The notes below the pieces were generated by a model. That model saw only the letters and a list, made by a program, of their open reading frames with translations, ran no database searches and was not told the DNA's origin. Below are positions 1 to 44,700 of a DNA stretch of 64,000 bases, one piece after another. A program made the position numbers and the translations under genes. Location: contig CAWDYC010000007.1 in assembly GCA_963806535.1 (NCBI GenBank), forward strand, positions 64,001 to 128,000, read 5' to 3'. Every line of letters starts with the position of its first letter. Positions within the stretch are counted from its first letter, which is position 1. This DNA comes from Candidatus Bathyarchaeota archaeon. GTDB taxonomy: Archaea; Thermoproteota; Bathyarchaeia; Bathyarchaeales; Bathycorpusculaceae.

Positions 1-2
1 CA

Positions 3-506
3 ACACCCACGTTTTTTGTTGTCACTTACCTTATGACGGAAGTTGGACTGACGTCGGTTGAAGCCGGTGGTGCATTCAGTATTTTTTTGATATCAATGAT
101 GCTTGGTGGTTATGTATGGGGGTTTATATCCGATCGTGTACCGAGAAAATATGTTGTATCGACTTGTTCCATTTTGTACGCAGTGTTACTTCTAGCCTTG
201 GTAGGCTTCGGGAAGGAAACAGAGGGTATCTATGTTATAATTGGTGCAATGGGCTTTGCAATAGGAATCCCTTCAGTGACGTTTGCAATGATTTCAGACT
301 ACTTCCCTTTAAAAGTTGTTGGAACCGCATCAGGATTAATAAATGCCATAAGCGGAGTAGGTTTCATATTGGGACCTTTAATCGCAGGAAATATAGCAAC
401 AACGACTGGAAGCTTTGTTCCAGCTTTCCAAGTAACTGCTGTAGTGGCAGTTGTGTTAGCAGTAGTATCATTAGCATTAAGACAACCAATATCTCACTCA
501 ACTTGA
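3..506 (+). CDS. MFS transporter, C-terminal part (5' truncated by window edge)
   Basis: Multiple TM helices, GFISDRVPRK (MFS motif A-like); frame open back to window start. Confidence 0.85.
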   Translation, partial: TPTFFVVTYLMTEVGLTSVEAGGAFSIFLISMMLGGYVWGFISDRVPRKYVVSTCSILYAVLLLALVGFGKETEGIYVIIGAMGFAIGIPSVTFAMISDYFPLKVVGTASGLINAISGVGFILGPLIAGNIATTTGSFVPAFQVTAVVAVVLAVVSLALRQPISHST

Positions 507-664
507 TAAGATGCACTGAAACAAACAAGGCATCAATCTGTTGCCAGTATTTCTTGTAGCAGTGCTAAATATGTCGCTTAAGCAAAATAGCTAGTTGAGA
601 CCTTCTTAACGTAAACTTTATTATGTTATCAAACCGTTTAAAACTCCAATCAAGGGAAAACGTC

Positions 665-1969
665 ATGACAAAAGTTTCAGAGCTCCAAAAAGGCAAGCCA
701 GAAGTTTACGAGACACGAGAAAATTGGCCACCCTACACTTACAGGGACTATCCGGGTATAGAACCAGAAACCTACAAAGCCTTCATGAACTTTTTAAATA
801 CTGAGAACACATCAGGCAGATTAATGGAACTCCAGCCTTGGATTTCTGTTTGCGATTCAAGATGTGCCTTCTGCTATTTCCCAACAACTGCCACAAGCAA
901 GGTAAAGATAGAACCTTACCTTGAACTGCTCAAAAAAGAATTGATGATGTACGCTAAAACCAAATATGTGAAGACGAGCATGTTTGATGAAATAGTTTTA
1001 GGCGGCGGAACACCAAGTGTCTTGGCTGCTGAGCAAATGATTGATTTAATCGACTTCTGTAAAGCAAACTTCAACATTAACAAGGAATATTTCATTAAAG
1101 TCACTGGTTCCTCAAAAACATTGGCGCTTCCAAAAATCGATAAACTGGCTAAGTATGGGGTTTATCAGATGGACATGGGCGCTCAAACCTTTGATGATAA
1201 ACTAAGAAAAAACCTATGCTTACCTGACAACGCTGCAGACGTAGAAAAAGCCATTCGGCATGCCCGAAAGCTCGACCTTTGTGTATGTGTGGATTTAATG
1301 TATAATCTTCCAGGGCAGACGATGGAAAGTTGGATCAGCACACTCAAGAAGGCAATTGAACTTGACGTCGAGATTGACGCTTACTCGTTACATGTCGATC
1401 CAGGCACCACGCTTGAAAAGATGATTAAGACAGGGGTCTCTCCTCCACCAGGTGATGCCGAATATGAAAAAGAAATGTACTTAACAGCTTACAAAATGTT
1501 GACTGGGGCTGGCTACAAGGCAGTAGGTCACGACCGTTACAGTCGCGTTGAATGGCATATGCGAGAGAACTGTTTAAACGGTTGGCCATGGGGCGGTATT
1601 TTAACAACTGGGGCAGGTTGCTTCATGGGGTATCTACAGCAGTTTTCATATTCTAACCTTGAAAACATAAACGATTACATGAACACCGTGAAAGATGGAA
1701 AACTGCCTATCAACAGGCTTTCTGAATCTACGACTGAAGACATGATGAGACGAACCATGACAAGGCTATATTTACGCCTGCCAGTCAGCAAAGAAGAGTT
1801 CATGCAAAAATTCGGAACCACACCCGAAAAAGTGTTTCCAAAGCAGCTTCAGAAACTAAAAGATAAAGGATTAATTGAAATCGACGAGAAAGAGGTTAGA
1901 TTAACCAAGTTGGGCGAAGTTTGGAAAGGCAATATCGCTTGGGAATTTGCACCTAACCAAGCAAAATAA
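665..1969 (+). CDS. Radical SAM protein, HemN/coproporphyrinogen III oxidase-like family
   Basis: CDSRCAFC cluster motif, GGGTPS, DLMYNLPGQT, HemN_C-like tail; ATG 665 preferred over 623. Confidence 0.85.
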   Translation: MTKVSELQKGKPEVYETRENWPPYTYRDYPGIEPETYKAFMNFLNTENTSGRLMELQPWISVCDSRCAFCYFPTTATSKVKIEPYLELLKKELMMYAKTKYVKTSMFDEIVLGGGTPSVLAAEQMIDLIDFCKANFNINKEYFIKVTGSSKTLALPKIDKLAKYGVYQMDMGAQTFDDKLRKNLCLPDNAADVEKAIRHARKLDLCVCVDLMYNLPGQTMESWISTLKKAIELDVEIDAYSLHVDPGTTLEKMIKTGVSPPPGDAEYEKEMYLTAYKMLTGAGYKAVGHDRYSRVEWHMRENCLNGWPWGGILTTGAGCFMGYLQQFSYSNLENINDYMNTVKDGKLPINRLSESTTEDMMRRTMTRLYLRLPVSKEEFMQKFGTTPEKVFPKQLQKLKDKGLIEIDEKEVRLTKLGEVWKGNIAWEFAPNQAK

Positions 1970-1990
1970 TTTTTTTGTTTTTTATTTAAA
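1969..1990 (+). terminator. T-rich archaeal terminator, probably bidirectional (A-tract follows) between convergent genes
   Basis: TTTTTTTGTTTTTTATTT directly after the stop codon. Confidence 0.5.
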
Positions 1991-2014
1991 CTAAAAAAGA
2001 AAAGAAAATGGGAT

Positions 2015-2698
2015 TTACTTGTGCCTCATCGGCTGTATACCATACCAGGTCATTACTTTTGCAAGAATTGGCACGATTACTCCTAAAGCAATGCTCGGAA
2101 TGAATGCTAACGTGAATCCGTACAAAAGAGAGCCAGCAGTAACAGCGCCATTTGATTCAAGCCAAAGGTTATGAGCCATAGTTCGTGCCGGTGAAAGTGA
2201 ATAATTGTAGTTCATGAATAGTTGAATTAATGCGGTAATTATTGCTGCTGTTAAGCCTGCACCAAGCATTCGTTTGAAATTTGATGAGCCATTGTTTAGT
2301 GCTCCTGCCATGTAGCCGATTACGACAGCGTTAACAAGGTAGAAAAGCATGCTTAGGTCGCCGAAGAAGTTGTAATTGACAGCTCCTGAGGAATATACTG
2401 CATAAACCGCGGTGAATTGACCCGCGTTTGCTAAGTAGTAGATGCCTCCCATGATAAAGCCTGCTGCACCACCTGCCCATTTATTCCAGAGTAAGCCCAG
2501 TACTAGTGGAATGCCTAGAACGATCATTTGAGCAAAGCCAGAGGTTAGAATAACAGCGATAACGTTTGATTCTCCGAATATATGTTGAGTTCCGCTTACG
2601 TTGACATAGACAGCCAAGAGAAAGATCAGTAATACAAGAATTAATGGTATGATTACGCCGTTGAATATGTCTGTCAGTTTAAATTTTTCTGTTTCCAA
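2015..2698 (-). CDS. Hypothetical integral membrane protein (about 6 TM, ECF S-component-like)
   Basis: Hydrophobic Gly-rich helices; lies downstream of the RnfD fusion. Confidence 0.7.
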   Translation of the reverse strand: METEKFKLTDIFNGVIIPLILVLLIFLLAVYVNVSGTQHIFGESNVIAVILTSGFAQMIVLGIPLVLGLLWNKWAGGAAGFIMGGIYYLANAGQFTAVYAVYSSGAVNYNFFGDLSMLFYLVNAVVIGYMAGALNNGSSNFKRMLGAGLTAAIITALIQLFMNYNYSLSPARTMAHNLWLESNGAVTAGSLLYGFTLAFIPSIALGVIVPILAKVMTWYGIQPMRHK

Positions 2699-2887
2699 TT
2701 TTTATCCCTTGACTTATTTACATAGTGGCAAGTTTATAAGCTTAATGCTTGAAAGCTATCGCAATAATTAGTCTAAGATTAAGAAATACTGGACTTAATT
2801 ATGCTCGCAAAAGAAATTTTTGAAATTCTTTACCCAACAAAAGTGGTCAACAAAAATAAAAAAAAGATTAGGGATTTATTTTTCAGT

Positions 2888-5044
2888 TTAAGCGTTTTCT
2901 TCTGCGCGTTTCTTTTTGAGAGTCGCCAACTTAGCTACTTCTTCTTTCTTTACTTCACCTTTAGCTAAGTCTAAGCCCTCGACCAGTTTTGCACCGACAT
3001 CTGACCGCACTATTACAGTTGAACGTCCATCTTCGCTGCCGACTGAGCCAACTGCTACATCAGCATATTTTGAAGCGAAATCAGGACAGCTTAAGCACCC
3101 TTTTTCTACAGCTGCGCCTAATTCTTTAACAGGTATTGAGTTTTCTTTTCCATCAATGACTACAATGAATTTGCCTTTGCGAATCTGAGTTTTTTCTGCT
3201 TTGTCTAGATCAACGTTTAGTAAGCGCTGTACTTCTGATTTGAGGTCTCTATAATTGAAGTCTTCGAAGCAGAACAAGCCTATCATTGTCAATTCTAGAT
3301 CTGGACAGTCACTTAGCATTTGCATCTGGATTCTTCGCGCTGCACGAATTTCGCATGGTGTACCAACAATCGCTATTTTTCGTTTACCTTTTGCAATCAA
3401 TTCGCCAAGCTTTGACATCATTCGCACTCTAACATATTTGGTGCCGCTAGCTTTGACGATGTCTTCGACGTTTTCAGCGACGTATGATTCAGCTAAGTAG
3501 CCTTGGCTTTTTCGAACTACGATTGCCGCATCAAACAAGCCTTTCTGCATACCTGAAACTAGTAATGCTGTAACCACTCCGCCGTCTTGTCCGTTATAGG
3601 AGCTTTTGGCTGAGAAAATTTCTTTGTAGACGCCTAAGTTTTCATCTTGTGTTCCGCTAAGGAATGTTTGCTCTATGACTTGTGCATCTTCTTCATTCAA
3701 TGGATAGTTGAGTATGTTGCTCTTCAGATCTATTCTTGCTGGGCAAACGTAATTGCAGCTTCCACATCCGGCGCAGAAGTCTGCGTCAAGTGCCATCAGT
3801 TCTTTTATGTTGTTTTTATCACGTGCCTGCTTAATCAATATTGGACTTAGTCTATTGCAACAGATACGCATACAAGCGCCACATCTAATGCAAGGGGTGG
3901 TTTTTACGTTTGTGAAGACTTTTCCTTTTGGTAACTTTGGTTCTTTTCCACCTTCAGCGGGTTTAAGTTTTCCTATTTTGTCAAGTTTAGGTACAGTTAG
4001 GTTCATGATGATTAATGCAACAAAGGAGGCTCCGAAGAACTGTAAGTAAGTCTGCATTAGTACGGTTATGATTGCTAAGCCGGTTCCGAAAATTGCTTGT
4101 CCTGTGTAGGTTAGAGGTGTGGTTGCAGGATCTGTTGCCATAAAGAACGCTAAGAATATTGAACTTCCGATGAACAACTCGAACAAAAGTCTAGTAGTGA
4201 GGTCTGAGTCACCATAAGCAAAAGCTAAGATCAGTGACATTACAGCGACAACTACAAGGTAGCTTACGGTTATTCTCCATTTAACGTATCTACGTGCTAT
4301 GGCGAAGAATGCTATACCAACTATGATTACTGCTATAGCTGAAGCACCGCCTGGCCAGCCGTGGAACTTATCTAAGAACATTGTCTGAAGCAAGTTGGTT
4401 GTGTCTGTAGTTGGTGCTTTGAGGTTAGCGTTAGCGAAGCAGTTGATTACATAAGAACCAAACCCTGGATATCCAGTACCTCCATTGCCATTTACGACAT
4501 TGACTAATCCAATAGGGCCTGATAGTGCAGGGACCTGAAGCACAGAGCTTTTTAGGTGATCTAATGCCAATAGCACTGTGCCAAGGAAAGGTATCATAAC
4601 AACGAATTTTGCAGCTGCAGCAGGATTAACGTATTTTCTTCCAGTGGTGCCGACAAGTTTTTTGAAAATCACTAAGCCAATTATCGAAATCAAAGCAACA
4701 TAGAGGAAACAGTCAGGTGCTTGTAAAGGAAGTACTTTATCCATGGCCATAGTAGGCATGCCGAGAGAGTAGGAGTCAGTGACAATTAATCCAAAAACAG
4801 CGGCAGACATGACATTAAGCGGGCTATCGGCGGTAACCTTGTACAATAAAGCATCAAGTCCAACGGCAAAACCTACAGCGATTATAGCATTGATACCTAA
4901 AGTAAGACCTAGATTCCAACCTGAAGGGGTTTTCTCAGCAGACCATATAATTGAGGTGATAACAGTGAGTGCGAGTAGCGCTATGAATGTGTAAATCATT
5001 AGTTTATCTTTAGTCATCGATGAATATTCTTTCGGTTTAGACAT
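2888..5044 (-). CDS. Fusion: RnfD/NqrB-like membrane domain + 2x[4Fe-4S] (RnfC C-terminal-like) + FrhB/F420-binding domain
   Basis: RnfD motifs GRKYVNPAAA and FFMATDPATTP; CIRCGACMRIC and CAGCGSCNYVCP; FrhB motifs QDGGVVTALL, VGTPCEI, IGLFC, GCLSCPDF..ADVAVGSVG. Confidence 0.85.
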   Translation of the reverse strand: MSKPKEYSSMTKDKLMIYTFIALLALTVITSIIWSAEKTPSGWNLGLTLGINAIIAVGFAVGLDALLYKVTADSPLNVMSAAVFGLIVTDSYSLGMPTMAMDKVLPLQAPDCFLYVALISIIGLVIFKKLVGTTGRKYVNPAAAAKFVVMIPFLGTVLLALDHLKSSVLQVPALSGPIGLVNVVNGNGGTGYPGFGSYVINCFANANLKAPTTDTTNLLQTMFLDKFHGWPGGASAIAVIIVGIAFFAIARRYVKWRITVSYLVVVAVMSLILAFAYGDSDLTTRLLFELFIGSSIFLAFFMATDPATTPLTYTGQAIFGTGLAIITVLMQTYLQFFGASFVALIIMNLTVPKLDKIGKLKPAEGGKEPKLPKGKVFTNVKTTPCIRCGACMRICCNRLSPILIKQARDKNNIKELMALDADFCAGCGSCNYVCPARIDLKSNILNYPLNEEDAQVIEQTFLSGTQDENLGVYKEIFSAKSSYNGQDGGVVTALLVSGMQKGLFDAAIVVRKSQGYLAESYVAENVEDIVKASGTKYVRVRMMSKLGELIAKGKRKIAIVGTPCEIRAARRIQMQMLSDCPDLELTMIGLFCFEDFNYRDLKSEVQRLLNVDLDKAEKTQIRKGKFIVVIDGKENSIPVKELGAAVEKGCLSCPDFASKYADVAVGSVGSEDGRSTVIVRSDVGAKLVEGLDLAKGEVKKEEVAKLATLKKKRAEENA

Positions 5045-5256
5045 TTTACAATCTCCTTAATTTCTGCCTTCAATTTAGGGCTAGTTGGTTTTATAAGACT
5101 TTCCCAAAACGTAATGGCAGTTCTATATTTAGTATAGAAGATATAGGAAATAGAAAAACTTTGACTCTTTTTACTTGTGATGTTAGAAAGCAAAATCTGA
5201 TAAGCAAAGCTAATACGGATAAACTGCCAAAGTCAATTTGTAAGTGAATCTTCAGC

Positions 5257-5712
5257 ATGACTAAGGCGAATAACGTTGAACTTGAAGGAACTACATTAAA
5301 CGTTTATTTACACGTGGTAAAAAAGGGCAAACCAGTAGGCCCAAGAGATGTCATGAAAGCTTTGAACCTAAGCAGCCCTAGCGTAGCCTACAGACACTTA
5401 CAGAAACTGGAAGACCTAAGCTATCTTCAAAAAAATGATTACGGCGAATACATAGCAAAAAACAAAGCACCCATAAGAGGTTACTTTTGGCTCGGTCGAC
5501 GTTTACTGCCGGTAATGTGGCGTTACTCCATTGTTTTCCTAGGCATTTTAATAGTAGAGAGTTATGTTCTTGCTGTGCATTTTCCAGTTGAGACTTATGA
5601 GTTTAAAGTTTTCTTTTTGCTGCTGATGCTCATTACCGGTTTAGCATTGATCATTTTTACAATTGAAGGATTTCTTCAAAACAAGCGTAAACGAAAAAGC
5701 ATAGATGAATAA
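5257..5712 (+). CDS. Membrane-anchored winged-HTH transcriptional regulator
   Basis: N-terminal wHTH (GPRDVMKALNLSSPSVAYRHLQKL) followed by two TM helices. Confidence 0.75.
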   Translation: MTKANNVELEGTTLNVYLHVVKKGKPVGPRDVMKALNLSSPSVAYRHLQKLEDLSYLQKNDYGEYIAKNKAPIRGYFWLGRRLLPVMWRYSIVFLGILIVESYVLAVHFPVETYEFKVFFLLLMLITGLALIIFTIEGFLQNKRKRKSIDE

Positions 5713-5833
5713 ACACCTATAAGACTGCAAATTTAGGTCTCCTAAGAAAAATAACAATTATATATTGAACCAAGCTTCCTCAGTTCACTAAGAAACAGAA
5801 AATCGGTTTCCAAGAGCAAGTTTTATATCGACT

Positions 5834-6979
5834 ATGCTAATTTACCTTGACAATGTGAATTCAATGAATAATTCAATGAATCCAATTACTGCCCCGTTAT
5901 TCATGGTTGTTTGGCGATGTACCCGCGGTTGTGTGGGCAGTTGCACATATTGTAGTTATATCAAAGAATATGCTAAAGACAAAGAACTAAACACTGAGCA
6001 AGCCAAACACATGGTTGATGAAATGGCAGAGTTCGGCTCACAATGGCTAGGAATCAGCGGCGGAGAACCCCTGATTCGACCTGACGTATGGGAAGTTATT
6101 GAATACGCAGAGAAAAAGCATGACATGAAAGTCAGCTTGATCACAAGCGGCTATGCATGGGACGAGAAACGCTTTGATTTATTGCGCAAATATGAAGTCC
6201 ACACTGCCATCAGCATTGATGGAGATAAAGAGTCAAATGACAAAATCAGGCGCAAGGGCGGCTATGACCAAGCCGTGCATGCAATGGAGAAACTTAGCAG
6301 CGTGGGCCTACTAGATTGCTTAGTTACAACCATGACTAAGTTTAATATTGACAAGATGGCTCATCCGGCTATGTTGGCGGAGAAATACAGTGCCCGCATG
6401 CTCGTTTACCATAACTTGGTTCCAGTTGGTAGAGCAGGAGAACATATGGAGGAAATAGCTCCATCACCAGAACAATACGAAACGGCATTCAACGAAATCT
6501 ATGATATCCAACGCAAACTCTACGGAAAAGTAAAAGTCAACGTCTACGCACCCTTCTACGCCCGTATCGTACGCCAAAAAAACCCAGTTGACTTCTGGCA
6601 ATGGTACAATGAAGGCTACCTCGGTAAATGTACCATCGGCGGCAACTACATTGGCATAACCGAAAACGGCGACTACCGAAGCTGCGGCTTCCACGAAGGC
6701 TACCGTATCGGCAACGTCAAAGACAAGAAACTGCGCACCGCATGGGATGAATTACAGAAGAGCGAACTGCACCTAAAGTTGCGCGACAAAAACAACCTCA
6801 AAGGCAGATGCGGAATTTGTGAGTACCGAGAAATCTGCGGCGGATGCCGAACACGCGCTGAATACTATACAGGCGACCTATTCGAATCAGATCCAGCATG
6901 CAATTACATACCTAAGGTGCTCCGCGAAGACCCCAAAATACTTGAAGAAATGCGCAAAACCGCGTGCAAAAAACAATAA
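5834..6979 (+). CDS. Radical SAM/SPASM domain protein (Ahb/NirJ/PqqE-like)
   Basis: CVGSCTYC motif, SGGEPL, SPASM CGICEYREICGGCR...DPAC; true start may be 5864 or 5876. Confidence 0.85.
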   Translation: MLIYLDNVNSMNNSMNPITAPLFMVVWRCTRGCVGSCTYCSYIKEYAKDKELNTEQAKHMVDEMAEFGSQWLGISGGEPLIRPDVWEVIEYAEKKHDMKVSLITSGYAWDEKRFDLLRKYEVHTAISIDGDKESNDKIRRKGGYDQAVHAMEKLSSVGLLDCLVTTMTKFNIDKMAHPAMLAEKYSARMLVYHNLVPVGRAGEHMEEIAPSPEQYETAFNEIYDIQRKLYGKVKVNVYAPFYARIVRQKNPVDFWQWYNEGYLGKCTIGGNYIGITENGDYRSCGFHEGYRIGNVKDKKLRTAWDELQKSELHLKLRDKNNLKGRCGICEYREICGGCRTRAEYYTGDLFESDPACNYIPKVLREDPKILEEMRKTACKKQ

Positions 6980-7042
6980 ACTCTTTTTTGTTTCCTTCAA
7001 TTTTATTTCTAATTATCTCGTAATCAATCAAAATTTTTAGTT

Positions 7043-9363
7043 TCAGGTTTGTGTTTGGTTAAAGTTATTCAGAATTTTGAAGATGTCATAACGGTCGTTT
7101 GAGTAGATTAGTTGCAGAAATTTGCAGCGAATCATGTTAGGATCAAGTTGGTTTTTGTCATAAACTATGAATTCAATGTTGTTTTCGGCAATGTAATTTT
7201 TGTAATCTCTTGAAGATACTGTAAATTGGTCAGGTTTGTAGTTAAAGAGGCTTTGCAGATTGTTTTGCTGCAGTGCCGGGAAACTGTTTTTGGTAAGAGT
7301 TAGAACTTGGTATTGCCGTGCAATTGTCTGGTTGGCGTTAATTTCGTTGAATTGATATTGGAATCTTACAGCATCTATCTGCCTGTTTGTCAAGGCACCG
7401 ACGTTTCCCCAGTCGGGTAAATCGGTGAAGTTAAAAGCATATGCAAGCTGATTTTTGTCGTCGTAGAGTCCTATGTAATTATCCGTTGAATCAGAGTTCG
7501 TAAAAGGTGCAACCGCCCATTCTTTTCCAACTGGACCACCAATAATTTTTGAAGGCAACGTCCCATGGATTAATCCAATTCATAAGTTGAGGTATCTGAG
7601 CTTTCTCAAAGTCAAATTGAAGATTAAAAGAAGTTGTCAAATACAGAATCACGTTGGATATGTCGCTTTGCAAGGGGTGTTACTGCCCAAGATATACCTA
7701 TCGCGTAACTGTCATTTTGAACAAGCATTGTTTGCGTTAAGTCTACATAATCGTTCGAGTATGTCAACGTTAAATTCTTTGGGTAGCTTTGGTCATTAAA
7801 AGAAATTTCTTTTTTCAAATCAGATAAAGGAAACGTGCAGTTTTTGCCGTTTTGTATAAAGGAAAGAAAATCTCCGTCACTTTTAGAAACTGATATTTGA
7901 TACCACACTTGATCTATCGAGACATAATTTTCGTCGGTAACTAAACCTTTAGCTTCGTAGGCTCTTATCAAGTTTTGCGGATCTTGGATTTCATAAGATA
8001 AACTCAAAACTGATTCCGCAATTTCTGTTCTTTGAACAGTCGGATCAGTTTGCGCAATTATGTTTTTTCCCGAAAAGGTTGAAAACCAAAAGCCCGGAAT
8101 TTCTGTGACGACGGCTGTGGCGTTACCCGGATAGTTTTGGCTTAGCCAGACTCCTGCATCACAGGCTTTTATGTCAGTTGTCGAGTAGTAAACGCTAGCT
8201 TCCATGATTTTTCCATACACTGTGTCTGAACGAAAAACAAGAGATAATGAGAACAAAATGATTATAGTAATAGTCAGGATTTTTAACCAATTTTTCCTAA
8301 AGATTTGTCTATTTTTGGAGTAAGATGCTTCGAATTTATCCATTATGAAGACAAGAGTAACCCCAGCAAAAATTGCCATCGGGGGCGTCAAGTAATAAAT
8401 GAACCACTGAAATGGCATAAAAAAACCAATCAGGTAAGATTCAGCAAAAAATAGAGGAACAAAAAAACTAAGCATCAAAATAAGATAAAAAATTGGTTTC
8501 TTCTTTTGTTTTAAAATGTAGTAGGAGAGGATTATTCCAGCTAAAGCAAAGAAGAAAATAAAGCCGAAATTTTCTATGAAAGAACTGAAATTTACGTATG
8601 GAATTTGGTAAGCGTAAGTTTTTATCTCAAAAAATACGTATTTTATTACTAAGTCAAGGTAACCTATCATCGCTTGAAAATAATAAAGGAAGAAAGCAAT
8701 TCCCCCGCCTAAAATAAGAGCTATTATAACTTTAAGGTATGAGCCTCTAGATTTTATTAACATGAAAAGGAGAACTGGAGGTAATATGAAAACGGCAAGG
8801 AAGGCAGCAAGCTGATGAGACAATACTAGGGAAAACGCAGCAAAAAAAGCCACCATAAGGTATCCAAAATGCTCTGCTGCTAAAGTAGAATAAAGTAAAA
8901 CTAAAAGCATAAACACCAGAGCAAGAACCGTGGTGTAACCGCCAAACGCATTTACCTCATACATAGGAACACACATCAACAACAAAACGGCCGCGACAGC
9001 GCCGACTTTTTTACTGAAAAATTTACTTGCAACTAGGTAAACGGAGAGGAAAAGAAGCCAATCAATTATCACCGCTAAAGCCTTTACCAAAAAAATTAGT
9101 TGCCCAATATTACTTGCGCCACTTAAAGAAATGAACATTGCAAGAACAAGTTCGTAAAGCGGAGGAGTCCAACCTAAGTTAACTAAAGGTATTTTTCCTG
9201 TTTCAAGGAAGATTTGGGCTTTCTTCAAATGCACGGAAGAGTCATTTCCTAAAACCACACCATTCATTGAAATAAAGGTAAAGAAAATGCTGAAAATTAG
9301 GACTGAGAAAACTATGATAAACAGGATTTCAATTTGTCGCTCTTTGGACAATTTACCCATCAA
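7043..9363 (-). pseudogene. Large multi-TM GT-C-like (membrane glycosyltransferase) protein, paralog of the upstream gene, broken by two +1 frameshifts (pseudogene or sequencing error)
   Basis: ORFs 7624-9363, 7491-7673 and 7043-7558 join after removing one base near 7675 and one near 7558; C-terminus parallels the paralog (NNIEFIVYD...IYSNDRYDIFKI vs NNVSYIVCR...VFINSEIAIFKV). Confidence 0.7.
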
Positions 9364-9371
9364 GGTTACAG

Positions 9372-11696
9372 CTAACTCCCCGCGATATTGATGTTCTCTT
9401 TAACCTTAAAGATGGCTATTTCACTGTTAATAAATACAAGGCTAAAGTTGGGGTCCTGCAGAAATTTTGGTTGGATTTCAATATTTCTGCAAACAATGTA
9501 AGATACATTGTTGGTTTGCATCGCAGTTCTGTAGTCAAACCATTCCTTAAAATCTACAGTTGCTTGGATTTTAGTGGAATTTAAGTTGGCAGCAATCACA
9601 GGGAGGAAATAGTTGTTTATGCTTTCGCTATTTTTGTAAATATCAGGGTTGTTATCGGCGGAGTAAGCACTTGCTAAAATTTGGATTTGACCGTATGAAA
9701 AGTTTTGGAATTGATATTCTAAATCGATTAAACGTGGATCTGCAACTTTTGTAGTCACATTTGGCTGATTAACGTTGAAAACTAATTGACCAAACGTTTT
9801 CACGCCTACATCTAATAAAGCAATTGTTTTTTTGTCATCGAATGGTATTTGCGTTCCCTTGCTTTGAACATCGATATTATTCCATAGCAAGGAGACGCCC
9901 GGAATAGTGCTTTCTATAGTTGAAGTCAAGTTAACGAAAAGCAATCCCTTGTAAACAGTTGTAAACTGTGTGTAATTAAAGAAATCGTTGCCTCTAGTAA
10001 CAATAATTGTCTTATGGTCATTGAAATTCTCAAAACTCATCCCTTCCACCGCGAGCTGATCCAAATAGACGGATTGAGGGATTCCGTTAATCGTGTACCT
10101 GATTTCGTTTTGACTACTGTCAAAAGTAAAAAATGAAAATGGGAAATAAGTCCAGTTGAGCGTGGCCAAAATTTCAGGATTATGTCTTGCTATATAGCCA
10201 CCATCTTCTCGAACCTGTACTAAATTGTTATCAATTAAGTAATCGGTGTCAAGGAGGTAACTGGCATTCTTTGCATATGGAAGCTCTCTTGCAAGGGTCA
10301 AATATTGAGGGTCAACAGCACTCAATGTTGGCCTCAGGGCAAATCCACCTAACCACCAGCCATAGAGTGCATCAGAAACAAATACGGATCCGGGTTGAGT
10401 ATTTTGTTTGATCCAATTAATCGCTTGGTAACCAGGATTATCCATAACTTGATAGAAACTTTGGTCTGTAGTGCCTTGCCAAGGAGTCATAAAAATTGGA
10501 AAGGAAAAGATGCATATGAGCACTATAACTACTATGAAAGAAGCATAGAGTGTTTTTTGGGTTATATGGCTTAAGACCTTATCTAGTGTTTTGTGTACGT
10601 TTTTTGTTGTTTTCTGAAGTTGACTCGTTAAAATATGGTAATTATTTATAATATGTGCTAAGAAAAAGGAACCTCGTTCCATGAACATGCCAATAAGTAG
10701 CATAACTGGTAAAACAAGGAAGTAAAGAAACCTATTGTAATCTACAATGAGCCCAAACAGGAATCCTTGAGTAAGCACAGTGGGAACAAGTAACCACATG
10801 AAAAGCAGTAACGCTGGAAGGGAAAGAAATCGACCTCTATATTCTTTTGACAAGAAGAAGAACAAGAACGTACAGGCGAAAAGCGGCAATATTAAGGTGA
10901 GAGGAAGCAGTCTTGTGGAAAGAATTGCTGAGTTAATTGCAGAGATATCAATGAACGAAGAGTTAGAACTCAAATAGGCTGGAACAGCGTTTACCAAAAA
11001 AGGCGAAACGAGAACAGCCCCAAGAACAAGCGGAAGTAGCCAATAGAATATATGTTTTCTTGAAGTGCCAAACGTTTTTGGAGAAATCATAGTCACTAAT
11101 ACTGTTGCAGCCGTTATGGCTACGAATACGGCCGCACTCAACGAGTGTGTGAGGTAAATTGAACCTACTAAAATAGAGGTTGAGACAAGAAAGGGTGTTA
11201 GCGTAAACCTATCTTTTTGCAAGTACAAGTAGAAAGCTACTGGAATTAAGAGCAGAGTAATTATGTTAGGGTAGCCTCCCCAAAGAAGTATTTCCATGTC
11301 GGGTCTAGAGATTGCAACTATGAAAGCTACTATAAAGGCACCCGATTCTGTCCAGCAGCTTTTTGTTATTAAGAAAGCGCCGAGAACGAGGAGGGAGGAA
11401 AACAAAGCTACAATAACAGTTTGCGCTATGTAACTAGGCATTCCAGTCATTATTATAATTCCTGCAGCGAAAATGTGGTATCCTGGAAAAGTCAAAGATA
11501 AGCCACCTCCCATCTGGTAATTATTCCATAAAAAATTAGTATTACCCGATTGAGTTATTGAATTAATGACGCTGTTATGTAAGCCTATGTCTGCGCCTGG
11601 TGGATAAGAAGTCCACAGCATTATAATCATTCGGTAGGCGAAGGCAAAAGCAAAAATCATAAGTAGTAAGATATGTTTTCTGGTCGCTTTGAACAT
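9372..11696 (-). CDS. Large multi-TM membrane protein, GT-C glycosyltransferase-like
   Basis: GADIGLH loop after TM1, many TM helices, soluble C-terminal domain (AINWIKQNT...YGWW). Confidence 0.7.
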   Translation of the reverse strand: MFKATRKHILLLMIFAFAFAYRMIIMLWTSYPPGADIGLHNSVINSITQSGNTNFLWNNYQMGGGLSLTFPGYHIFAAGIIIMTGMPSYIAQTVIVALFSSLLVLGAFLITKSCWTESGAFIVAFIVAISRPDMEILLWGGYPNIITLLLIPVAFYLYLQKDRFTLTPFLVSTSILVGSIYLTHSLSAAVFVAITAATVLVTMISPKTFGTSRKHIFYWLLPLVLGAVLVSPFLVNAVPAYLSSNSSFIDISAINSAILSTRLLPLTLILPLFACTFLFFFLSKEYRGRFLSLPALLLFMWLLVPTVLTQGFLFGLIVDYNRFLYFLVLPVMLLIGMFMERGSFFLAHIINNYHILTSQLQKTTKNVHKTLDKVLSHITQKTLYASFIVVIVLICIFSFPIFMTPWQGTTDQSFYQVMDNPGYQAINWIKQNTQPGSVFVSDALYGWWLGGFALRPTLSAVDPQYLTLARELPYAKNASYLLDTDYLIDNNLVQVREDGGYIARHNPEILATLNWTYFPFSFFTFDSSQNEIRYTINGIPQSVYLDQLAVEGMSFENFNDHKTIIVTRGNDFFNYTQFTTVYKGLLFVNLTSTIESTIPGVSLLWNNIDVQSKGTQIPFDDKKTIALLDVGVKTFGQLVFNVNQPNVTTKVADPRLIDLEYQFQNFSYGQIQILASAYSADNNPDIYKNSESINNYFLPVIAANLNSTKIQATVDFKEWFDYRTAMQTNNVSYIVCRNIEIQPKFLQDPNFSLVFINSEIAIFKVKENINIAGS

Positions 11697-11818: not shown

Positions 11819-12247
11819 ATGTCATGGCTTAAATCTATGATGGAAAAAGAGCCCCCAGAACCAGAAAATCCACTCGGCATCGTCGTAATCGGAAACATTG
11901 AACCCGACATGCATGACACAGCAAAAGAAGCAGTAAGAAGATCACTGAAACGCGCAGGTTTCAAGACAATTGACGTTGGAAAAAGCGTTGCTCCGCAAGT
12001 ATTTGTTGACAAAGCAAAAGAAAACAATGCAAATATTATCGCAATATCAGTTAACACAGTACCCGCAAAAAATAACCTTGCAAAACTCGACGAATTATTA
12101 AAAGCAGCTGGATTAAAAGGTAAAATAGCAATAATCATGGGTGGCGCTGCAGTCAAGAAAGAAGATGCTGACGCGATGGGCGCACTCTTTGGCAAAAACA
12201 AGGAAGAAGCTCCCGAGTTAGCAAAGAAAGCTCTTGGCAAGAAATAA
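11819..12247 (+). CDS. Cobalamin (B12)-binding corrinoid protein, single domain
   Basis: DMHDTAK (DxHxxG variant), IIAIS, MGGAAV; co-transcribed with mtrH. Confidence 0.85.
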   Translation: MSWLKSMMEKEPPEPENPLGIVVIGNIEPDMHDTAKEAVRRSLKRAGFKTIDVGKSVAPQVFVDKAKENNANIIAISVNTVPAKNNLAKLDELLKAAGLKGKIAIIMGGAAVKKEDADAMGALFGKNKEEAPELAKKALGKK

Positions 12248-12265
12248 TCCATCAGATGAGGAAAA

Positions 12266-13177
12266 ATGTCCTTTAAATTCAATACAAACCAAAATATCTA
12301 CACCATTGGAAGAGCGAAAGTCGGTGGTCAGCCAGGGGAATTACCAACCTTTTTGATTGGTTCCATCTTTTGGCTAGGTCAGAAAATGGTTACAGATGCT
12401 AACAAAGGTATCTTCGATGCCAAAGTTGCAGAACAAATAATCAATACGATGCAAACTCAAAGTGACATTACCGGTGTACAATTTGCTTTTGACATAGTTG
12501 GAACGACTGAATTAGCTTTTGAGAAATACATTGATTTCGTCTCAAAACACAGTGACGCACCATTGATGCTTGACGCAATGAGCCCAAAGACCCGTATGGC
12601 AGCAGCCGACATGGCAAAAAAGATGGGTCTTGCGGACAGGTGCCTCTACAACTCAGTTTACAAAGGCGTTACTGACGTAGAACTTGCAAAGCTCAAAGAA
12701 AGCGGAATTAAAATGTCAATAGTGCTTGCTGACGATCCGAAAGATACAACTCTCGAAGGCAAAATGAAAGTTATCCAAGAAGCATTAGCTTTAGCTGATA
12801 AAGCCGGAATCACAAAACCGCTAATTGACACAGCTATTCCCGCGTTTGCTCCAGACATGGGAACTGCAGTAAGAACCATACCAATCATGAAAGAAAAGTA
12901 TGGTCACCCAGTCGGCTTAGGCAGCGGAAACGTTGTAACAACAATGGGTTGGGTCAAAGCAAACGTTGCTAAAGAATTCCGCCCAGGATGCAGAACAGCA
13001 ACCAACGCAATAATGCAGGTAGCAGGCGCAAACTGGCTAATGATCGGTCCAGCAGAACAGGCAGAATGGATATTCCCAGCAGTCGCAGTAACAGACTCAT
13101 ACATTGCATCAGCAGCAGGCGACCTCGGCACAAGACCAGTTGAGGAATCACACCCGATATACAAGATGTTCATGTAA
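12266..13177 (+). CDS. mtrH: Tetrahydromethanopterin S-methyltransferase subunit H family (MtrH/MtgA-like)
   Basis: KVGGQPGELPTFLIGSIF N-terminal signature, PLIDTA, GANWLMIGP. Confidence 0.9.
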   Translation: MSFKFNTNQNIYTIGRAKVGGQPGELPTFLIGSIFWLGQKMVTDANKGIFDAKVAEQIINTMQTQSDITGVQFAFDIVGTTELAFEKYIDFVSKHSDAPLMLDAMSPKTRMAAADMAKKMGLADRCLYNSVYKGVTDVELAKLKESGIKMSIVLADDPKDTTLEGKMKVIQEALALADKAGITKPLIDTAIPAFAPDMGTAVRTIPIMKEKYGHPVGLGSGNVVTTMGWVKANVAKEFRPGCRTATNAIMQVAGANWLMIGPAEQAEWIFPAVAVTDSYIASAAGDLGTRPVEESHPIYKMFM

Positions 13178-15196: not shown

Positions 15197-16249
15197 TTAA
15201 CGCTTGGAAAGAGATTCACTCACAATTCTGATTAAAACATGTTTTAGGTATGGCGGCAAATCAACCAAATTATATCCCTTCAGCTTTGAGCAGTCCAATT
15301 GAGCTATGGAAATACTTCCAAAACATTTGCTTGAGTCAGCTACCTCCCCAAGGTCGGGAGGCAACAGGTTCTTTTTGATGTCGTCATCCAGTTTTGCTGC
15401 TGTCAGCACATAAGGTAGAGCAAGCTGGTTATTTTTCAAAATTTCCGCTAAACCCTTTGCATCAACAGATAACCCCTCAATTTTTGACACCTCGGCGGCT
15501 AGTTTCTCGAGCGGCAGATGCCTCTCTCTGAGCCTATCTACAACTGTTCGACAAGCCCAAAATGGCTCTTGCTTGATTAAGGCTTCAGTAACCGCTTTTC
15601 TTGTGCAGGATCCGACAAGCTTTCCCAATTTTGATGCGGGTCCTCCGTAGCTGATTGTTTTACCTTTGTTTGTTGAAGCTATTGCTATGCTGTCGGTTAT
15701 TGATCCTGTGGCTGAGTCTCCAGTGTAGAGGCTTCTTACGTCAAGGTCTCTTAATGCTGCTGATTTTGCTTCAGTTGCGGTGATTACAGATGCTACCATG
15801 CAGCTTTCGGTAGGGTTTCCATCAATTAACACGATAACGTTAATGGTTCCGTGGATTTCTTGAACATCCATTTCTTCACCTGAGGATTCACCATGCTTGC
15901 AGCCTGCAGTTGCAACAACGCAGACTGAAAAATCATCAGTCCTTTTTATTACTAAACTGTAATTTTTAATTTTGGCAGCAGTAACCATTGCAAGATAGTC
16001 TTTCGAAAATCCTAGTTTTGCCGCCGATGAGGTGATTAGTTCAAGCGGGTCAAGGTGCAAGGAAAGGTCATTGTACCCTTCCGGCACGCCTACATTGAGG
16101 ACAGCTTTAATCTGTTTGTGCCCGCCATTATAAAACGCTGAACTTACAGTCATTAAAGCGTTATCACAAAATACGGCTAGCACGTTATCTTTTACGAAAA
16201 GTTTGGCGCCGCCAGCAAGGTTAAACTCTTCCACAGGCAAGTCACCCAC
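15197..16249 (-). CDS. cbiZ: Adenosylcobinamide amidohydrolase
   Basis: SSAFYNGG, MVTAA, VATAG, GTINV, TATEAK, ATGSITD motifs. Confidence 0.85.
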   Translation of the reverse strand: MGDLPVEEFNLAGGAKLFVKDNVLAVFCDNALMTVSSAFYNGGHKQIKAVLNVGVPEGYNDLSLHLDPLELITSSAAKLGFSKDYLAMVTAAKIKNYSLVIKRTDDFSVCVVATAGCKHGESSGEEMDVQEIHGTINVIVLIDGNPTESCMVASVITATEAKSAALRDLDVRSLYTGDSATGSITDSIAIASTNKGKTISYGGPASKLGKLVGSCTRKAVTEALIKQEPFWACRTVVDRLRERHLPLEKLAAEVSKIEGLSVDAKGLAEILKNNQLALPYVLTAAKLDDDIKKNLLPPDLGEVADSSKCFGSISIAQLDCSKLKGYNLVDLPPYLKHVLIRIVSESLSKR

Positions 16250-24047: not shown

Positions 24048-25328
24048 TTACTTTTGGTTCCAATAAATATTGTATGCTGAAACGAAAGCAGTAAAGTCTT
24101 TAGAGTCTATTTTGCCGTCATGATTAAAGTCCGCCGCAGGATTAACATAGCCATTATTCCAATAAGAATTGTAAGCTCGCGAGAAGGCTATAAAGTCATT
24201 TCCGTCAACTCTAAAGTCGCCATTCAAGTCGCCTTTAGGAGTTACCCCGAGTGTTATTGGCGAAAAAGTGTTAGCCTGCCCCGATGAAGACTCAACATAG
24301 GCAGTAATCGTATAGTTTCCTATAGGCAAGTTTTCGCTGCCCAAAGAGCTGTTTATAATTATTGAGTTTCCGCTACCTAAAGTCTCCGTTCCATTGTATA
24401 TTAAGGTTGAAAAGTTTTTGGAAGTTGCAATCAAGTGAAATTGCGCGGTCTCTGAAGAGCTGCCCTTATTCTGCAATGAAATGCCTACGGGGAATGTAAA
24501 ACCGGACTCCACAAGAGATTGCTGCAGCATAATGTTAGTAACTGTAATGTTTGAAGGTGAAGAAGCAGTGGTAGCAGAATCAACAGGATTTATCAAAAAT
24601 ACAGGGTCAGCAAACCAACAATTGGCATTTGCTGATACATCACGCCCTTCAAACCAAGGAACCACAGAATCGATCTGAACAGAACTACATGAATAAGGTG
24701 CAAAGGGCAATGAATTAGACGAAATTGTAACATAATTATAATACGTAGTTGGAACTGTCAAATCCCAAGTTATCTGCGTCCAATCTTGACCCCAATGAAC
24801 ATAAGTTATTCCTCCCGTAAAACTGCTATAATCTTGTTCGATTTCTGCATTTTGCGGGTGCCCTGCTTGATGCCCCGCAGTATCAACAGTGGCTATTCCA
24901 TAACCCAAATTACTATGAATGTAAAAGTCTAAGCCTATTTCTGCTCCAGAATATTGACTGTTACTTGTGTAGGTTGCAGTTTTTATCCATGCCGAAAACA
25001 CAATATGGTCGCCTGGTTTAACGTTGAGCCAAGCTCCGTCAACCTCTCTTGTACCCCTAACATAGTCTGGTCCCGTCCGAATACTAACATCACCATTATG
25101 AAGAGTGCCATAATCAAGAGACGCATAAGAAGCAGCTGCACCATTCATATCAGGATAGAAGGCACTAATAGGTTCCAAATTTAGTGAAGAAGAGGGGGAA
25201 ACCGTAGTTGTACTATGAACAAGCAAAGTCAAGAACGGAAATAATGCCAAAACCACAAGAAACAACAAACAAAAAGATTTACGACTATTCTTAATTACGC
25301 ATCCCCTCATCCCGTAATCCTCAAACAT
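24048..25328 (-). CDS. Secreted protein: CBM-like beta-sandwich + CARDB-like domain + C-terminal dockerin
   Basis: Signal/TM segment; duplicated Ca-loops GDLNGDFRVDGND and ADFNHDGKIDSKD. Confidence 0.8.
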   Translation of the reverse strand: MFEDYGMRGCVIKNSRKSFCLLFLVVLALFPFLTLLVHSTTTVSPSSSLNLEPISAFYPDMNGAAASYASLDYGTLHNGDVSIRTGPDYVRGTREVDGAWLNVKPGDHIVFSAWIKTATYTSNSQYSGAEIGLDFYIHSNLGYGIATVDTAGHQAGHPQNAEIEQDYSSFTGGITYVHWGQDWTQITWDLTVPTTYYNYVTISSNSLPFAPYSCSSVQIDSVVPWFEGRDVSANANCWFADPVFLINPVDSATTASSPSNITVTNIMLQQSLVESGFTFPVGISLQNKGSSSETAQFHLIATSKNFSTLIYNGTETLGSGNSIIINSSLGSENLPIGNYTITAYVESSSGQANTFSPITLGVTPKGDLNGDFRVDGNDFIAFSRAYNSYWNNGYVNPAADFNHDGKIDSKDFTAFVSAYNIYWNQK

Positions 25329-30755: not shown

Positions 30756-32729
30756 TTAACTCGGGCTATTGTAAGATATATAAGAGTTCATGAAAACAAT
30801 AAAATCCTTGGAGGTTATTTTTCCATCCTGATTAAAATCGGCTAAACCATTATAAACACTGAGATTTACTCGGTTAAAACCTACGTACGCTCCAGCAAAT
30901 GATATAAAGTCGTGACCATCAACTTTGAATTCACCGTTTAAATCACCTAAATATGTTATCTCCGCCATCTCTATTGTCGTATTCTTGGAATTAATGCTAG
31001 CTGTTATTGTGTAGTTTCCGACAGATAGGTTGCTCGTGTCTATTTGGGAAATAGCATTCGATGAATTATCGCTTATTACGACCGTATCGTTATACTCAAG
31101 TTTGTCGTTGGCGTAGATTTGAATCGTATTGGAGCCGTTTTGAACTGGTACGTTGATTGATAGCGGGAAACCTTTTTCAGTGTATGTATAATTAAGCGGT
31201 GATTCATGTTGACTATTGCCTGTATACATGTATATTCGATTTGTTGGTAATTGTCCAAGAAAATTTGCATCGACGACGGAATTCCAATCAGAAGCAAAAG
31301 TAACATTCCAAACGCCGATTTTGTTGAAGTAGAGGGATAGTGGCGTTGACCCATACAAGAAAGTTAGGTTGCCTGTTGCTGCTATCGGAATTAGGACGGA
31401 GTTTGAGCTAAAGTCTATTGCGGTAAGATCCTTATCAATTATATTGTAGTTGTATTCATAGTGAAGTTCTTCGAGAGGTACGGCCAGCTTAGCTGTTGTT
31501 TGTATTATTGCCAAATTAATCAGCAGATTTGCAGCAAGCGCTGTAGCTGAGTCGCTAGGAACTGCGTCTGAACGGATTCTGTATAGTCCAGTAGATTGAT
31601 CATAAAGCCCTGCTGAAGGGTCACTAAGCAAACTCCATGCTGGTATGTTCAGATTGCTTCCTGTTGTAATATTGTATGCTGCGCCGTTTAGCATTTCCTG
31701 AATTTTGTTTTGATCAGATGGGGGAAGCAAAGGATAAGTTGCGATTATTGATTGCCACGTCATTTGTGTGTTTTCAAGTCTTCTCTGTGAATTCGAGTCG
31801 GCATGTTGGACCACATAGTCGAGCCATTGGGGACTATTCCATAAGCTAGCTAAGTATCGGCTATGTATGTCTGTTAATAAGTTCTGTGTATTTGTAATAT
31901 TGGAATCATAGTTATACAACTTCCAAATTATTTGTTCAAAGCCGCCAGCTTCACATTCATAGAGCCCGTTAGCGGAAGTATATCCGTAGTACGCTCCGTT
32001 CCAATAATGCGCATTTTCGAAATTCCACAGGTCAACTGACCGATTTAATGCTTGAGAGATGCCAAACCTGTAAAACTCCAAATATCCATCAAGAGATTGA
32101 CCAGTTTCATCGTAATACCTTCCTGTGTAGGGTGACGCTGTGTTATCCCCGCGAATCCAAAGTGGTGGCGTTCCATAACTTGCCTGACTATATTTAACGG
32201 CAGTGTCATAGCTATTGTAAGCCAAAGTTATATTCCATTTAGATAAGTCATATTGATATTTGGCTGCCCAATAATATCCATATATCAAATACCTATCATA
32301 AACACAAAAGCATTGCAAACCTTGCAAATCATAAAATTCAGCTGGCAAATCATTAGCCATCAAAGACGCAGCATCAAGGGCACGTTCTATAGTTGTTTGG
32401 TTTGCCAAATTGTATTTGTCAACCACAGCATACCAATACATTATTGAATTCCAATCTGAACTAGGTAAAGCGTCAATCATAGTTTGAAATTCTTGTGGCG
32501 TTACCGTCCCTATGCTCAGGCCCATATATGCGGTATCTAAGTCTTTAGTAAAATTAGTGTTGCTGACAAGATTCTTTATCGTGTTAGCTAATGTAGGATT
32601 ACTGACGGAATCACCAAGGGTGGGTGTAATTGATATCATACTGGTGAGAAATACAATTATCAAACCTACTACTAGGATTTTCCTGTAATTTAATCTTTCA
32701 GCTTTAAAAATGCCTGGAATATGAGACAA
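30756..32729 (-). CDS. Secreted helical (possible alpha/alpha-barrel GH-like) protein with C-terminal dockerin
   Basis: Signal peptide; Tyr/Trp-rich core (RYYDE, YECEAG); GDLNGEFKVDGHD and ADFNQDGKITSKD. Confidence 0.75.
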   Translation of the reverse strand: MSHIPGIFKAERLNYRKILVVGLIIVFLTSMISITPTLGDSVSNPTLANTIKNLVSNTNFTKDLDTAYMGLSIGTVTPQEFQTMIDALPSSDWNSIMYWYAVVDKYNLANQTTIERALDAASLMANDLPAEFYDLQGLQCFCVYDRYLIYGYYWAAKYQYDLSKWNITLAYNSYDTAVKYSQASYGTPPLWIRGDNTASPYTGRYYDETGQSLDGYLEFYRFGISQALNRSVDLWNFENAHYWNGAYYGYTSANGLYECEAGGFEQIIWKLYNYDSNITNTQNLLTDIHSRYLASLWNSPQWLDYVVQHADSNSQRRLENTQMTWQSIIATYPLLPPSDQNKIQEMLNGAAYNITTGSNLNIPAWSLLSDPSAGLYDQSTGLYRIRSDAVPSDSATALAANLLINLAIIQTTAKLAVPLEELHYEYNYNIIDKDLTAIDFSSNSVLIPIAATGNLTFLYGSTPLSLYFNKIGVWNVTFASDWNSVVDANFLGQLPTNRIYMYTGNSQHESPLNYTYTEKGFPLSINVPVQNGSNTIQIYANDKLEYNDTVVISDNSSNAISQIDTSNLSVGNYTITASINSKNTTIEMAEITYLGDLNGEFKVDGHDFISFAGAYVGFNRVNLSVYNGLADFNQDGKITSKDFIVFMNSYISYNSPS

Positions 32730-32741
32730 AGAAGCAATCCT

Positions 32742-44678: not shown

Positions 44679-44700
44679 TTTCTATCACTCAAACTTATTT

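Follow-up and report, generated by a model that had tools for sequence, protein, structure and literature searches.

In the Rnf complex, the two iron-sulfur clusters of RnfC bridge the riboflavin of RnfD to the flavin mononucleotide (FMN) of RnfC, as outlined in a 2025 review (PMC12174285). Vitt et al. (PMC9588780) describe Asn124 and Asp248 of the C. tetanomorphum RnfD as flanking this riboflavin, and propose Asp248 as a Na+ site; for structure 7zc6 they give 11.7 A as the gap between the distal cluster and this pocket. Partial systems have been described by Meheust et al. 2021 (PMC8238504) in Actinobacteria and bacteria of the candidate phyla radiation (CPR), where an NqrB/RnfD-like domain is fused to an NqrF-type domain that binds nicotinamide adenine dinucleotide (NAD). 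As presented there, these NQR/RNF-like systems are defined by a neighbouring ApbE or extracytosolic FMN-binding gene and have one transmembrane path, which is read as unidirectional electron flow. For Bathyarchaeia, one paper reports only scattered RnfB, RnfC and RnfD hits in its relevant passages (PMC9534799), and another, to the extent of its available text, an orphan FrhB and no Rnf (PMC7886697). The locus described here lies in a 64,000-nucleotide stretch from a Candidatus Bathyarchaeota archaeon (assembly GCA_963806535.1, contig CAWDYC010000007.1, positions 64,001 to 128,000), called "the window" below. One of its genes unites an RnfD-like membrane domain, an RnfC-type pair of [4Fe-4S] clusters and an FrhB-like domain, and is followed by a gene for a small membrane protein. 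The locus is a conserved, lineage-restricted membrane redox module and, judging from sequence, most likely an F420H2 dehydrogenase that feeds an RnfD-type flavin site.

A fusion of RnfD-like, RnfC-type and FrhB domains

The fusion gene (2888..5044, minus strand) is a single open reading frame (ORF) of 718 amino acids (aa) with an ATG start, and the ORF list, Pfam and NCBIfam bear out the preliminary description of it as one frame joining all three domains. Residues 1-357 (3974..5044, minus strand) form an RnfD/NqrB-like membrane domain of ten helices, recognized by alignments and by Pfam, where PF03116 (NQR2_RnfD_RnfE) covers residues 3-357 with 120.4 bits (cut-off 27.7). A Lys-rich linker (residues 358-379) precedes the RnfC-type ferredoxin domain (residues 380-445; 3710..3907, minus strand). 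Here Pfam places 4Fe-4S dicluster families over residues 380-442, NCBIfam matches residues 378-443 to the C-terminal part of rnfC (TIGR01945 positions 358-423, E 1.6e-11), and a motif scan finds two CxxCxxCxxxC motifs, at residues 385 and 424. The remainder, residues 464-718 (2891..3655, minus strand), is an FrhB/Fsr-N-type module for flavin adenine dinucleotide (FAD) and [4Fe-4S], identified by Pfam, NCBIfam and Foldseek; it contains FrhB_FdhB_N at residues 482-544 (55.8 bits) and FrhB_FdhB_C at residues 555-699 (123.5 bits). Pfam finds no match in the fusion to RnfC_N or the NuoF-like FMN/NADH domain (PF13375, PF01512), nor to the NqrF-type PF00175, and the NCBIfam rnfD model (TIGR01946) scores 81.6 bits, below its cut-off of 207.05. 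The AlphaFold2 (AF2) model of the fusion has a mean predicted local distance difference test score (pLDDT) of 83 and a predicted template modelling score (pTM) of 0.82, and Foldseek matches its membrane part to RnfD (9eri_D, 2e-9) and NqrB.

The fusion is a genuine, conserved gene and not an assembly artefact, because a search of 5.8 billion proteins returned 1,183 relatives at E<=0.001, the best 120 of which share its architecture. Those 120 are 52-94% identical to the fusion and have an identical Pfam set; 116 of them are 676-759 aa long and four shorter entries are 500-631 aa. Where the source gives an organism, the label among these 120 is nearly always Bathyarchaeota; a single "Hodarchaeota" label among the relatives listed could not be confirmed. 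When 70 of these sequences are aligned, over 150 columns do not vary, and every cluster cysteine is among them. Misassembly, which had been raised as a possible flaw, thus fails as an explanation in view of the conservation of the architecture across relatives. The DNA reads bear on the junction itself more narrowly: in one run, short contigs cover 3900-4050 with 1 difference, although these are short unitigs of which none spans the whole gene, and the run may be the window's own sample.

Several residues indicate which parts of the RnfD electron path are retained. N140 (in NPAA) and D305 (in MATDPATTP) align to Asn124 and Asp248 of the C. tetanomorphum RnfD in phmmer-type alignments, and both are invariant in alignments of 15 and of 70 sequences, so that a riboflavin may occupy a putative site in the RnfD-like domain. 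The residues of the outer side are changed. A regular-expression search for the flavinylation motif ([ST]GA[TS] or D..[ST].A[TS]) found no instance anywhere in the 718-aa protein, in agreement with the earlier observation that the RnfD part has no [S/T]GAT FMN-attachment motif. The same search hit 4 of 82 family ORFs, sporadically, and recovered the known sites of RsxD and RsxG, which served as controls. In a phmmer alignment the A. vinelandii RnfD motif DGMTGAT lies opposite NGGTGYP of the fusion, and the FMN-bearing threonine is therefore replaced by proline; the E. coli RsxD motif DGISQAT falls opposite an unconserved stretch in a MAFFT alignment. Glu185 of RnfD, an outer-site residue, aligns to Gly233. 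With N140 and D305 kept and the flavinylation motif and Glu185 lost, the fusion retains the electron path of RnfD and RnfC in its cytoplasmic half, whereas the outer half with its covalent flavin is gone.

The FrhB module has four invariant cysteines in the 70-sequence alignment (C564, C592, C650 and C653), which are putative cluster ligands. Foldseek matches for this part of the model are the F420-reducing component of carbon monoxide dehydrogenase (CODH; 8riu_B, 1e-18), Fsr (7np8) and Frh. Among solved structures, its nearest relatives are without exception F420 enzymes (29-35% identity); identity to the chlorophyll reductase HCAR is 19%. The organism appears to use F420, because its genome encodes CofE (260 bits), CofD (185 bits) and CofC. 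The cofC gene adjoins a luciferase-family (Mer-like) gene and an operon of NuoE, NuoF and a 491-aa protein with 2Fe-2S, 4Fe-4S and FrhB domains (L009 8182-13957 on genome contig 7, ~236-242 kb, outside the window). Homology, together with cofC, cofD and cofE in the genome, makes F420 the probable substrate of the fusion.

Three versions of one module

In the genomes sampled, the RnfD-like gene occurs, apart from the window's own genome, in just two families, which belong to a single order of Bathyarchaeia. In a class sample of 401 Bathyarchaeia genomes it was found in 76: 63 of the 103 genomes of one family (f1), 12 of the 18 of a second (f5), and the window's own genome. A phylum sample of 251 genomes gave a similar picture, with the gene in 8 of 11 and 2 of 3 genomes of those two families and in the window's genome, and in none of the 236 others. 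A search of 1.84 billion cluster representatives recovered only 35 proteins at E<=1e-30.

The open frames that match the RnfD-like domain fall into three size classes, of ~720 aa, ~455 aa and ~375-410 aa, and these represent three versions of the locus: RnfD joined to the ferredoxin domain and FrhB, as in the window; RnfD joined to the ferredoxin domain; and rnfD with a separate, complete rnfC of the NADH type. In all six cases of the shortest class that were examined (L093 and L094 by domain scan; G102, G094, G381 and G127 by position), the next gene encodes a complete RnfC consisting of RnfC_N, the Complex1_51K NuoF-like FMN domain and two [4Fe-4S] clusters. The dicluster domain of the fusion is 43% identical to the C-terminus of a congener's separate RnfC. 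Since congeners hold an RnfD-only gene and a complete RnfC at the same locus, and the diclusters are this similar, FrhB occupies the place of the NADH module. PF02508 (RnfA/E) has no match in any of five congeners with a separate RnfC, whose genomes are 95-99% complete and in two cases single contigs. A separate RnfC beside RnfD in genomes without RnfA/E implies that the lineage has a module consisting of RnfC and RnfD only. By comparison of these sequences, the NADH-binding part of this RnfCD-only module appears to have been replaced by FrhB in the window, and the whole arm fused to RnfD.

The window's genome (2.95 Mb in 12 contigs, 91.75% complete) contains no match to PF02508 (RnfA/E), PF04205 (the FMN_bind domain of RnfG) or PF02424 (ApbE), all of which were detected in control genomes; rnfB was not searched separately. 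The earlier remark that no rnfABCEG genes lie nearby is thus extended to the whole genome for RnfA/E, RnfG and ApbE. A complete canonical Rnf elsewhere, of which the fusion would be a degenerate copy, was found neither here nor, as far as RnfA/E is concerned, in the five congeners. The preliminary description had proposed that F420(H2) replaces NAD(H) at a reduced Rnf-like complex. This proposal gains support from the RnfD and full RnfC of congeners, the dicluster identity and the lack of a canonical Rnf, with F420 as the likely carrier.

Two further RnfD-like copies were found in the genome. One is a paralogue of 438 aa (L008 7118-8434, genome contig 6) that is 53% identical to the fusion over residues 1-446 and ends without FrhB. 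It has no TM227-type neighbour (the small membrane protein that follows the fusion gene, described below), and a CxxCxxCC-domain protein and small unassigned ORFs lie downstream; a 230-aa protein near this paralogue was considered as a possible relative of TM227 and rejected. The other, an RnfD-only copy, is split into two overlapping frames (L007 8630-9034 and 9021-9758, genome contig 7) and lacks an adjacent rnfC; it probably represents the NADH-type version in decay.

More distant relatives carry a different enzyme in the same position. A 1131-aa protein (P0276) with 35% identity, recovered in the search of cluster representatives, has the RnfD-like and ferredoxin domains fused to a molybdopterin oxidoreductase. 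On one metagenome contig (L099 4826-11989), the genes after such a fusion of ~1130 aa encode NuoE, NuoF, a NuoG-N-like protein and an FMN_bind protein, and the set looks like a membrane-anchored formate-dehydrogenase-like enzyme. No TM227 homologue was found near the RnfD-molybdopterin fusions (L098, L099). The existence of the molybdopterin fusion means that input modules vary on a common membrane domain, and interchangeable cytoplasmic inputs on a shared membrane domain are the mark of a dehydrogenase.

A proposed electron path and its alternatives

The gene downstream of the fusion (2015..2698, minus strand, TTG start) encodes a 227-aa membrane protein that we call TM227. The preliminary description had it as a six-helix protein of no known family, which is what we find: the model has six long helices (pLDDT 75), and neither Pfam nor NCBIfam gives a match. 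The protein has no cysteine and carries three conserved motifs, PLxLGLxWNxWAGGAxGF (invariant), GYxAGAL and FKRM. Its family has 1,660 members at E<=0.001; the best 120 of these have no Pfam domain, their organism labels are all Bathyarchaeota or Bathyarchaeia, and the named entries are called "hypothetical protein". Among 80 related loci, a TM227 homologue lies directly downstream on the same strand in 60, comprising 15 of 18 uninterrupted long-form loci and 45 of 62 others (among them L043 and L071, whose tblastn spans mark them as long forms that are cut or interrupted). The TM227 profile matches 77 genomes of the class sample, and 75 of the 76 genomes with the RnfD-like gene also hold TM227, although these genomes are kin and the count is not an independent statistic. 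The exceptions are one genome with the RnfD-like gene alone and two with TM227 alone.

The predicted fold of TM227 may resemble that of the S components of energy-coupling factor (ECF) transporters. When the model was compared with representative structures by VIA-align, the top 11 rows were all ECF S components, at Z 9.9-7.2 (ThiT 9.9, PanT 9.4, BtuM 8.0, BioY 7.9, RibU chains 7.7 and 7.6), although for helical bundles a Z below 13 may mean merely a common arrangement. The first named neighbour in the language-model Atlas is also an ECF S component (score 0.88), and Foldseek matches are weak (E 0.037 at best). We regard the predicted similarity as a lead and not as proof. No EcfT or EcfA gene occurs among the locus genes scanned; no genome-wide EcfT search was made. 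A complex prediction for fusion residues 1-450 with TM227 scored 0.00, which gives no verdict and is evidence neither way.

Taking these observations together, we give slightly better than an even chance to the following reading: the fusion is a membrane-anchored dehydrogenase, probably F420H2-dependent, derived from the RnfD-RnfC half of Rnf, with a non-covalent flavin site and without the canonical Rnf pump, and it is one of three versions of a module. Hydride from F420H2 would pass to the FAD of the FrhB module. Single electrons would then travel through the [4Fe-4S] cluster of FrhB and the two RnfC-type clusters to a non-covalent flavin in the RnfD-like domain, whose cytoplasmic half would hold a riboflavin-type site for it. 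An acceptor within the membrane or past it would receive them next, and the co-inherited ECF-S-like TM227 would probably take part in this step. The module would be a lineage-specific RnfCD-only unit existing in three interchangeable versions: the NADH type with separate RnfC, the bare ferredoxin-domain type, and the F420 type.

Several points weigh against this reading. The changes in the outer-side residues, Glu185 to glycine and the FMN threonine to proline, leave no known route for electrons onward from the riboflavin site. Menaquinone was considered as the acceptor and set aside, since the genome has no PF02621 (MqnA/MqnD of the futalosine pathway); other quinone routes were not searched. 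Specificity for F420 is assigned by homology, the FrhB part scores under every NCBIfam equivalog cut-off (156 vs 331.5 for frhB TIGR03289; 142.6 vs 475 for FpoF NF040616), and CofH was not found in the window's genome. The 189-nt intergenic spacer between the fusion and TM227 genes (2699..2887, minus strand) has an oligo-T run right after the fusion stop and a TATA-like TTATAAA ~45 nt before the TTG of TM227, which may be a terminator and a promoter, respectively; the oligo-T run suggests that the two genes are transcribed separately. Rfam has no match in window positions 1-8000, the spacer included. Finally, TM227, the RnfD-like gene and a HemN-like neighbour are found together in two related families only, a pattern that common ancestry could produce. 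On balance, the interpretation given in the preliminary description is partly supported; it did not recognize the fusion as one of three architectures of a lineage-specific module, nor the likeness of its six-helix neighbour to ECF S components.

An unlikely extension of the dehydrogenase reading concerns the fate of the electrons. The module might be a flavinylation-free transmembrane conduit, in which electrons leave the inner RnfD-like flavin for a second flavin, or a comparable cofactor, that TM227 binds non-covalently on the outer face; TM227 would stand in for the covalently flavinylated RnfG and FMN-binding proteins of bacteria. Electrons from F420H2 would be discharged to acceptors outside the cell, for instance humic quinones of peat and soil, or the flow would run in reverse and take electrons up. 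If this is true, archaea would possess in this conduit an equivalent of the NQR/RNF-like systems and of the flavin-based extracellular electron transfer of bacteria, with NADH or formate-type donors in its relatives.

As the preliminary description also suggested with its redox-gated transporter, the RnfD-like domain might instead be a cation channel or transporter gated or driven by redox state, with F420H2 opening or driving ion passage through the retained cytoplasmic cation/riboflavin site and no net export of electrons. The RnfD/NqrB fold has relatives among channels for urea and ammonium, a kinship treated in the 2025 review (PMC12174285) and reflected here in weak Foldseek rows for urea transporters and AmtB (E ~0.01-0.03), and D305 aligns to the Asp248 that Vitt et al. 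propose as a Na+ site. We nevertheless consider a channel distinctly unlikely: a wire of three clusters and a flavoprotein is a heavy input for gating alone, the outer-side site residues are lost (Glu185 to Gly233), and inputs that can be swapped among NADH, F420 and molybdopterin types resemble those of a dehydrogenase with a real electron sink.

Just as doubtful, in our estimate, is a membrane reductase that would supply low-potential electrons to co-inherited radical S-adenosylmethionine (SAM) enzymes, perhaps acting on a membrane-bound substrate. Genes for such enzymes do persist at the locus. A HemN-family (class C) radical SAM protein, assigned by Pfam and NCBIfam (623..1969, plus strand), has counterparts in 60 of the 80 loci; an AhbD/NirJ-like radical SAM/SPASM protein (5834..6979, plus strand), which is a paralogue and not the genome's ahbD, in 69; and a B12-dependent, BchE-like radical SAM gene occurs in 43. 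They are still nearby in rearranged distant loci (L078, L089). In the class sample, HemN-like orthologues occur almost exclusively in the same two families (66 of 103 genomes in f1, 12 of 18 in f5), with one weak match of 32% identity elsewhere. Against this, neither F420H2 nor NADH reduces strongly enough to serve radical SAM clusters without energy coupling, the genes are not all encoded on one strand, conserved gene order inside a single archaeal order may reflect inheritance and not function, and the contig 6 paralogue has no radical SAM neighbours.

It is more improbable still that the locus handles a cofactor or vitamin, with TM227 as an S-component-like binder of flavin, corrinoid or a similar ligand that the RnfD-like protein reduces or conducts during uptake or export. 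The VIA-align rows and the Atlas neighbour point this way, and there is a precedent in EetB of Listeria, which is reported to resemble ECF S components, to bind FAD and to belong to a locus for electron transfer at the membrane (PMC9973259). Genes for CobD/CbiB or CobQ-like proteins lie near distant loci, and CbiZ is encoded in the window. The Z values, however, are in the range where a shared helical arrangement may suffice, TM227 matches no sequence family, the locus has no ECF T or A genes, and nothing indicates a particular ligand. That the fusion is a decaying remnant of a lost Rnf, or a chimera of assembly, is barely credible: the genome's frame-split RnfD-only copy without rnfC speaks for it, but the architecture is kept in the best 120 of 1,183 relatives, the invariant columns include all cluster cysteines, and short contigs cross the junction, albeit in a run that is perhaps the window's own sample.

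Neighbouring genes and comparison with known systems

Divergent from the fusion gene, an ORF at 5257..5712 (plus strand; 27 of the 80 loci) encodes a 151-aa protein, probably a membrane-tethered regulator, whose N-terminus matches winged-helix domains weakly and whose C-terminal half is hydrophobic. Farther along, at 7624-11696 on the minus strand, are two large multi-pass membrane proteins of 579 and 774 aa that have no Pfam match; relatives of each were found in 37-38 of the 80 loci.

Heme was considered as a replacement cofactor of the RnfD-like domain and rejected. The idea arose from the AhbD-like and HemW/HutW-like neighbours, the conserved outer-side residues H163 and H228, and an ahbABCD operon in the genome. 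AhbB is present in 42 of the 401 class genomes, comprising 17 of 103 in f1, none of 18 in f5, and 24 in families without the RnfD-like gene; most carriers of the module therefore have no heme pathway. The operon is itself a complete ahbA-ahbB-ahbC-ahbD set for siroheme-dependent heme b synthesis (L092 9889-13188, genome contig 4, ~175.9-179.2 kb, outside the window), in which AhbB scores 163.6 bits, above its cut-off, and the others fall below theirs (AhbA 138 vs 140, AhbC 555 vs 650, AhbD 409 vs 500).

The rest of the window holds other gene sets. At 11819-13177 (plus strand) and 15197-16249 (minus strand) a small B12-binding corrinoid protein is directly followed by MtrH, with the gene for CbiZ (cobinamide amidohydrolase) nearby; pairing of MtrH with corrinoid proteins is discussed for Bathyarchaeia in PMC7886697. 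Dockerin/cohesin-domain proteins are encoded on the minus strand at 24048-25328, 40798-41412 and 43698-44678, and lie among secreted proteins of very large size, up to 1418 aa, that carry Ig-like and PKD domains (region 30756-48436); the dockerin/cohesin set hints at a cellulosome-like surface assembly in an archaeon. A polyphosphate kinase occupies two overlapping ORFs at 57692-59826 (plus strand), with PP_kinase_N at 57692-58294 and the remainder at 58255-59826, a split that may be a frameshift or a sequencing error. It is followed by a CHAD-metallophosphatase-Ppx fusion and a Ppx/GppA gene (59801-63714).

Energy conservation and the balance of redox carriers in Bathyarchaeia are an open question, and the fusion locus bears on both. 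It shows that the orphan RnfC, RnfD and FrhB genes reported for the group are parts of one conserved membrane module, whose donor would be swapped among NADH, F420H2 and none. For archaea that are abundant in peat and soil, it offers a concrete candidate, open to test, for the connection of the F420 pool with the membrane. It also bears on the evolution of Rnf and Nqr, in that neither the pumping half nor covalent flavins are required for the RnfD-RnfC half to exist. Our literature search found no description of the fusion or of an RnfCD-only module, and the words F420, fusion and Bathyarchae do not occur in the available portion of the 2025 review (PMC12174285).

Compared with the RnfC-RnfD interface of Rnf (9eri, 7zc6, 8ahx), the fusion keeps the membrane fold, the C-terminal 2x[4Fe-4S] domain and the Asn and Asp of the riboflavin site. 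It differs in that its genome lacks the RnfA, RnfE, RnfG and ApbE families, in the loss of the covalent-FMN threonine, in the attachment of the ferredoxin domain to the C-terminus of RnfD, and in having FrhB in place of the NuoF-like NADH module. Like FrhB, FpoF of the Fpo complex and the N-terminal half of Fsr (7np8, 7npa), its FrhB module combines FrhB_N and FrhB_C with conserved cysteines and serves as an input module on another redox machine; it is 31-35% identical to FrhB, Fsr and the F420-reducing CODH component. Unlike these proteins, it sits on an RnfD-like membrane domain and not on complex-I-type subunits, a hydrogenase or a sulfite reductase, and it scores below the equivalog level. 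TM227 may share with ECF S components such as the flavin-binding RibU and EetB a similar predicted six-helix fold, according to VIA-align and language-model features, but it belongs to no sequence family and is not accompanied by ECF T or A genes among those scanned at the locus.

Of the concepts described so far, that of NQR/RNF-like partial systems (Meheust et al. 2021, PMC8238504) comes closest. As characterized in the relevant part of that work, those systems have in common with the fusion a membrane domain joined to a cytosolic donor domain and one of the two transmembrane paths. The fusion departs from them in carrying an RnfC-type dicluster and FrhB and not PF00175, in having no ApbE, FMN_bind or flavinylation motif, and in its archaeal host. 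What is new here is the FrhB form and the three-way exchange of modules on one RnfD-like domain.

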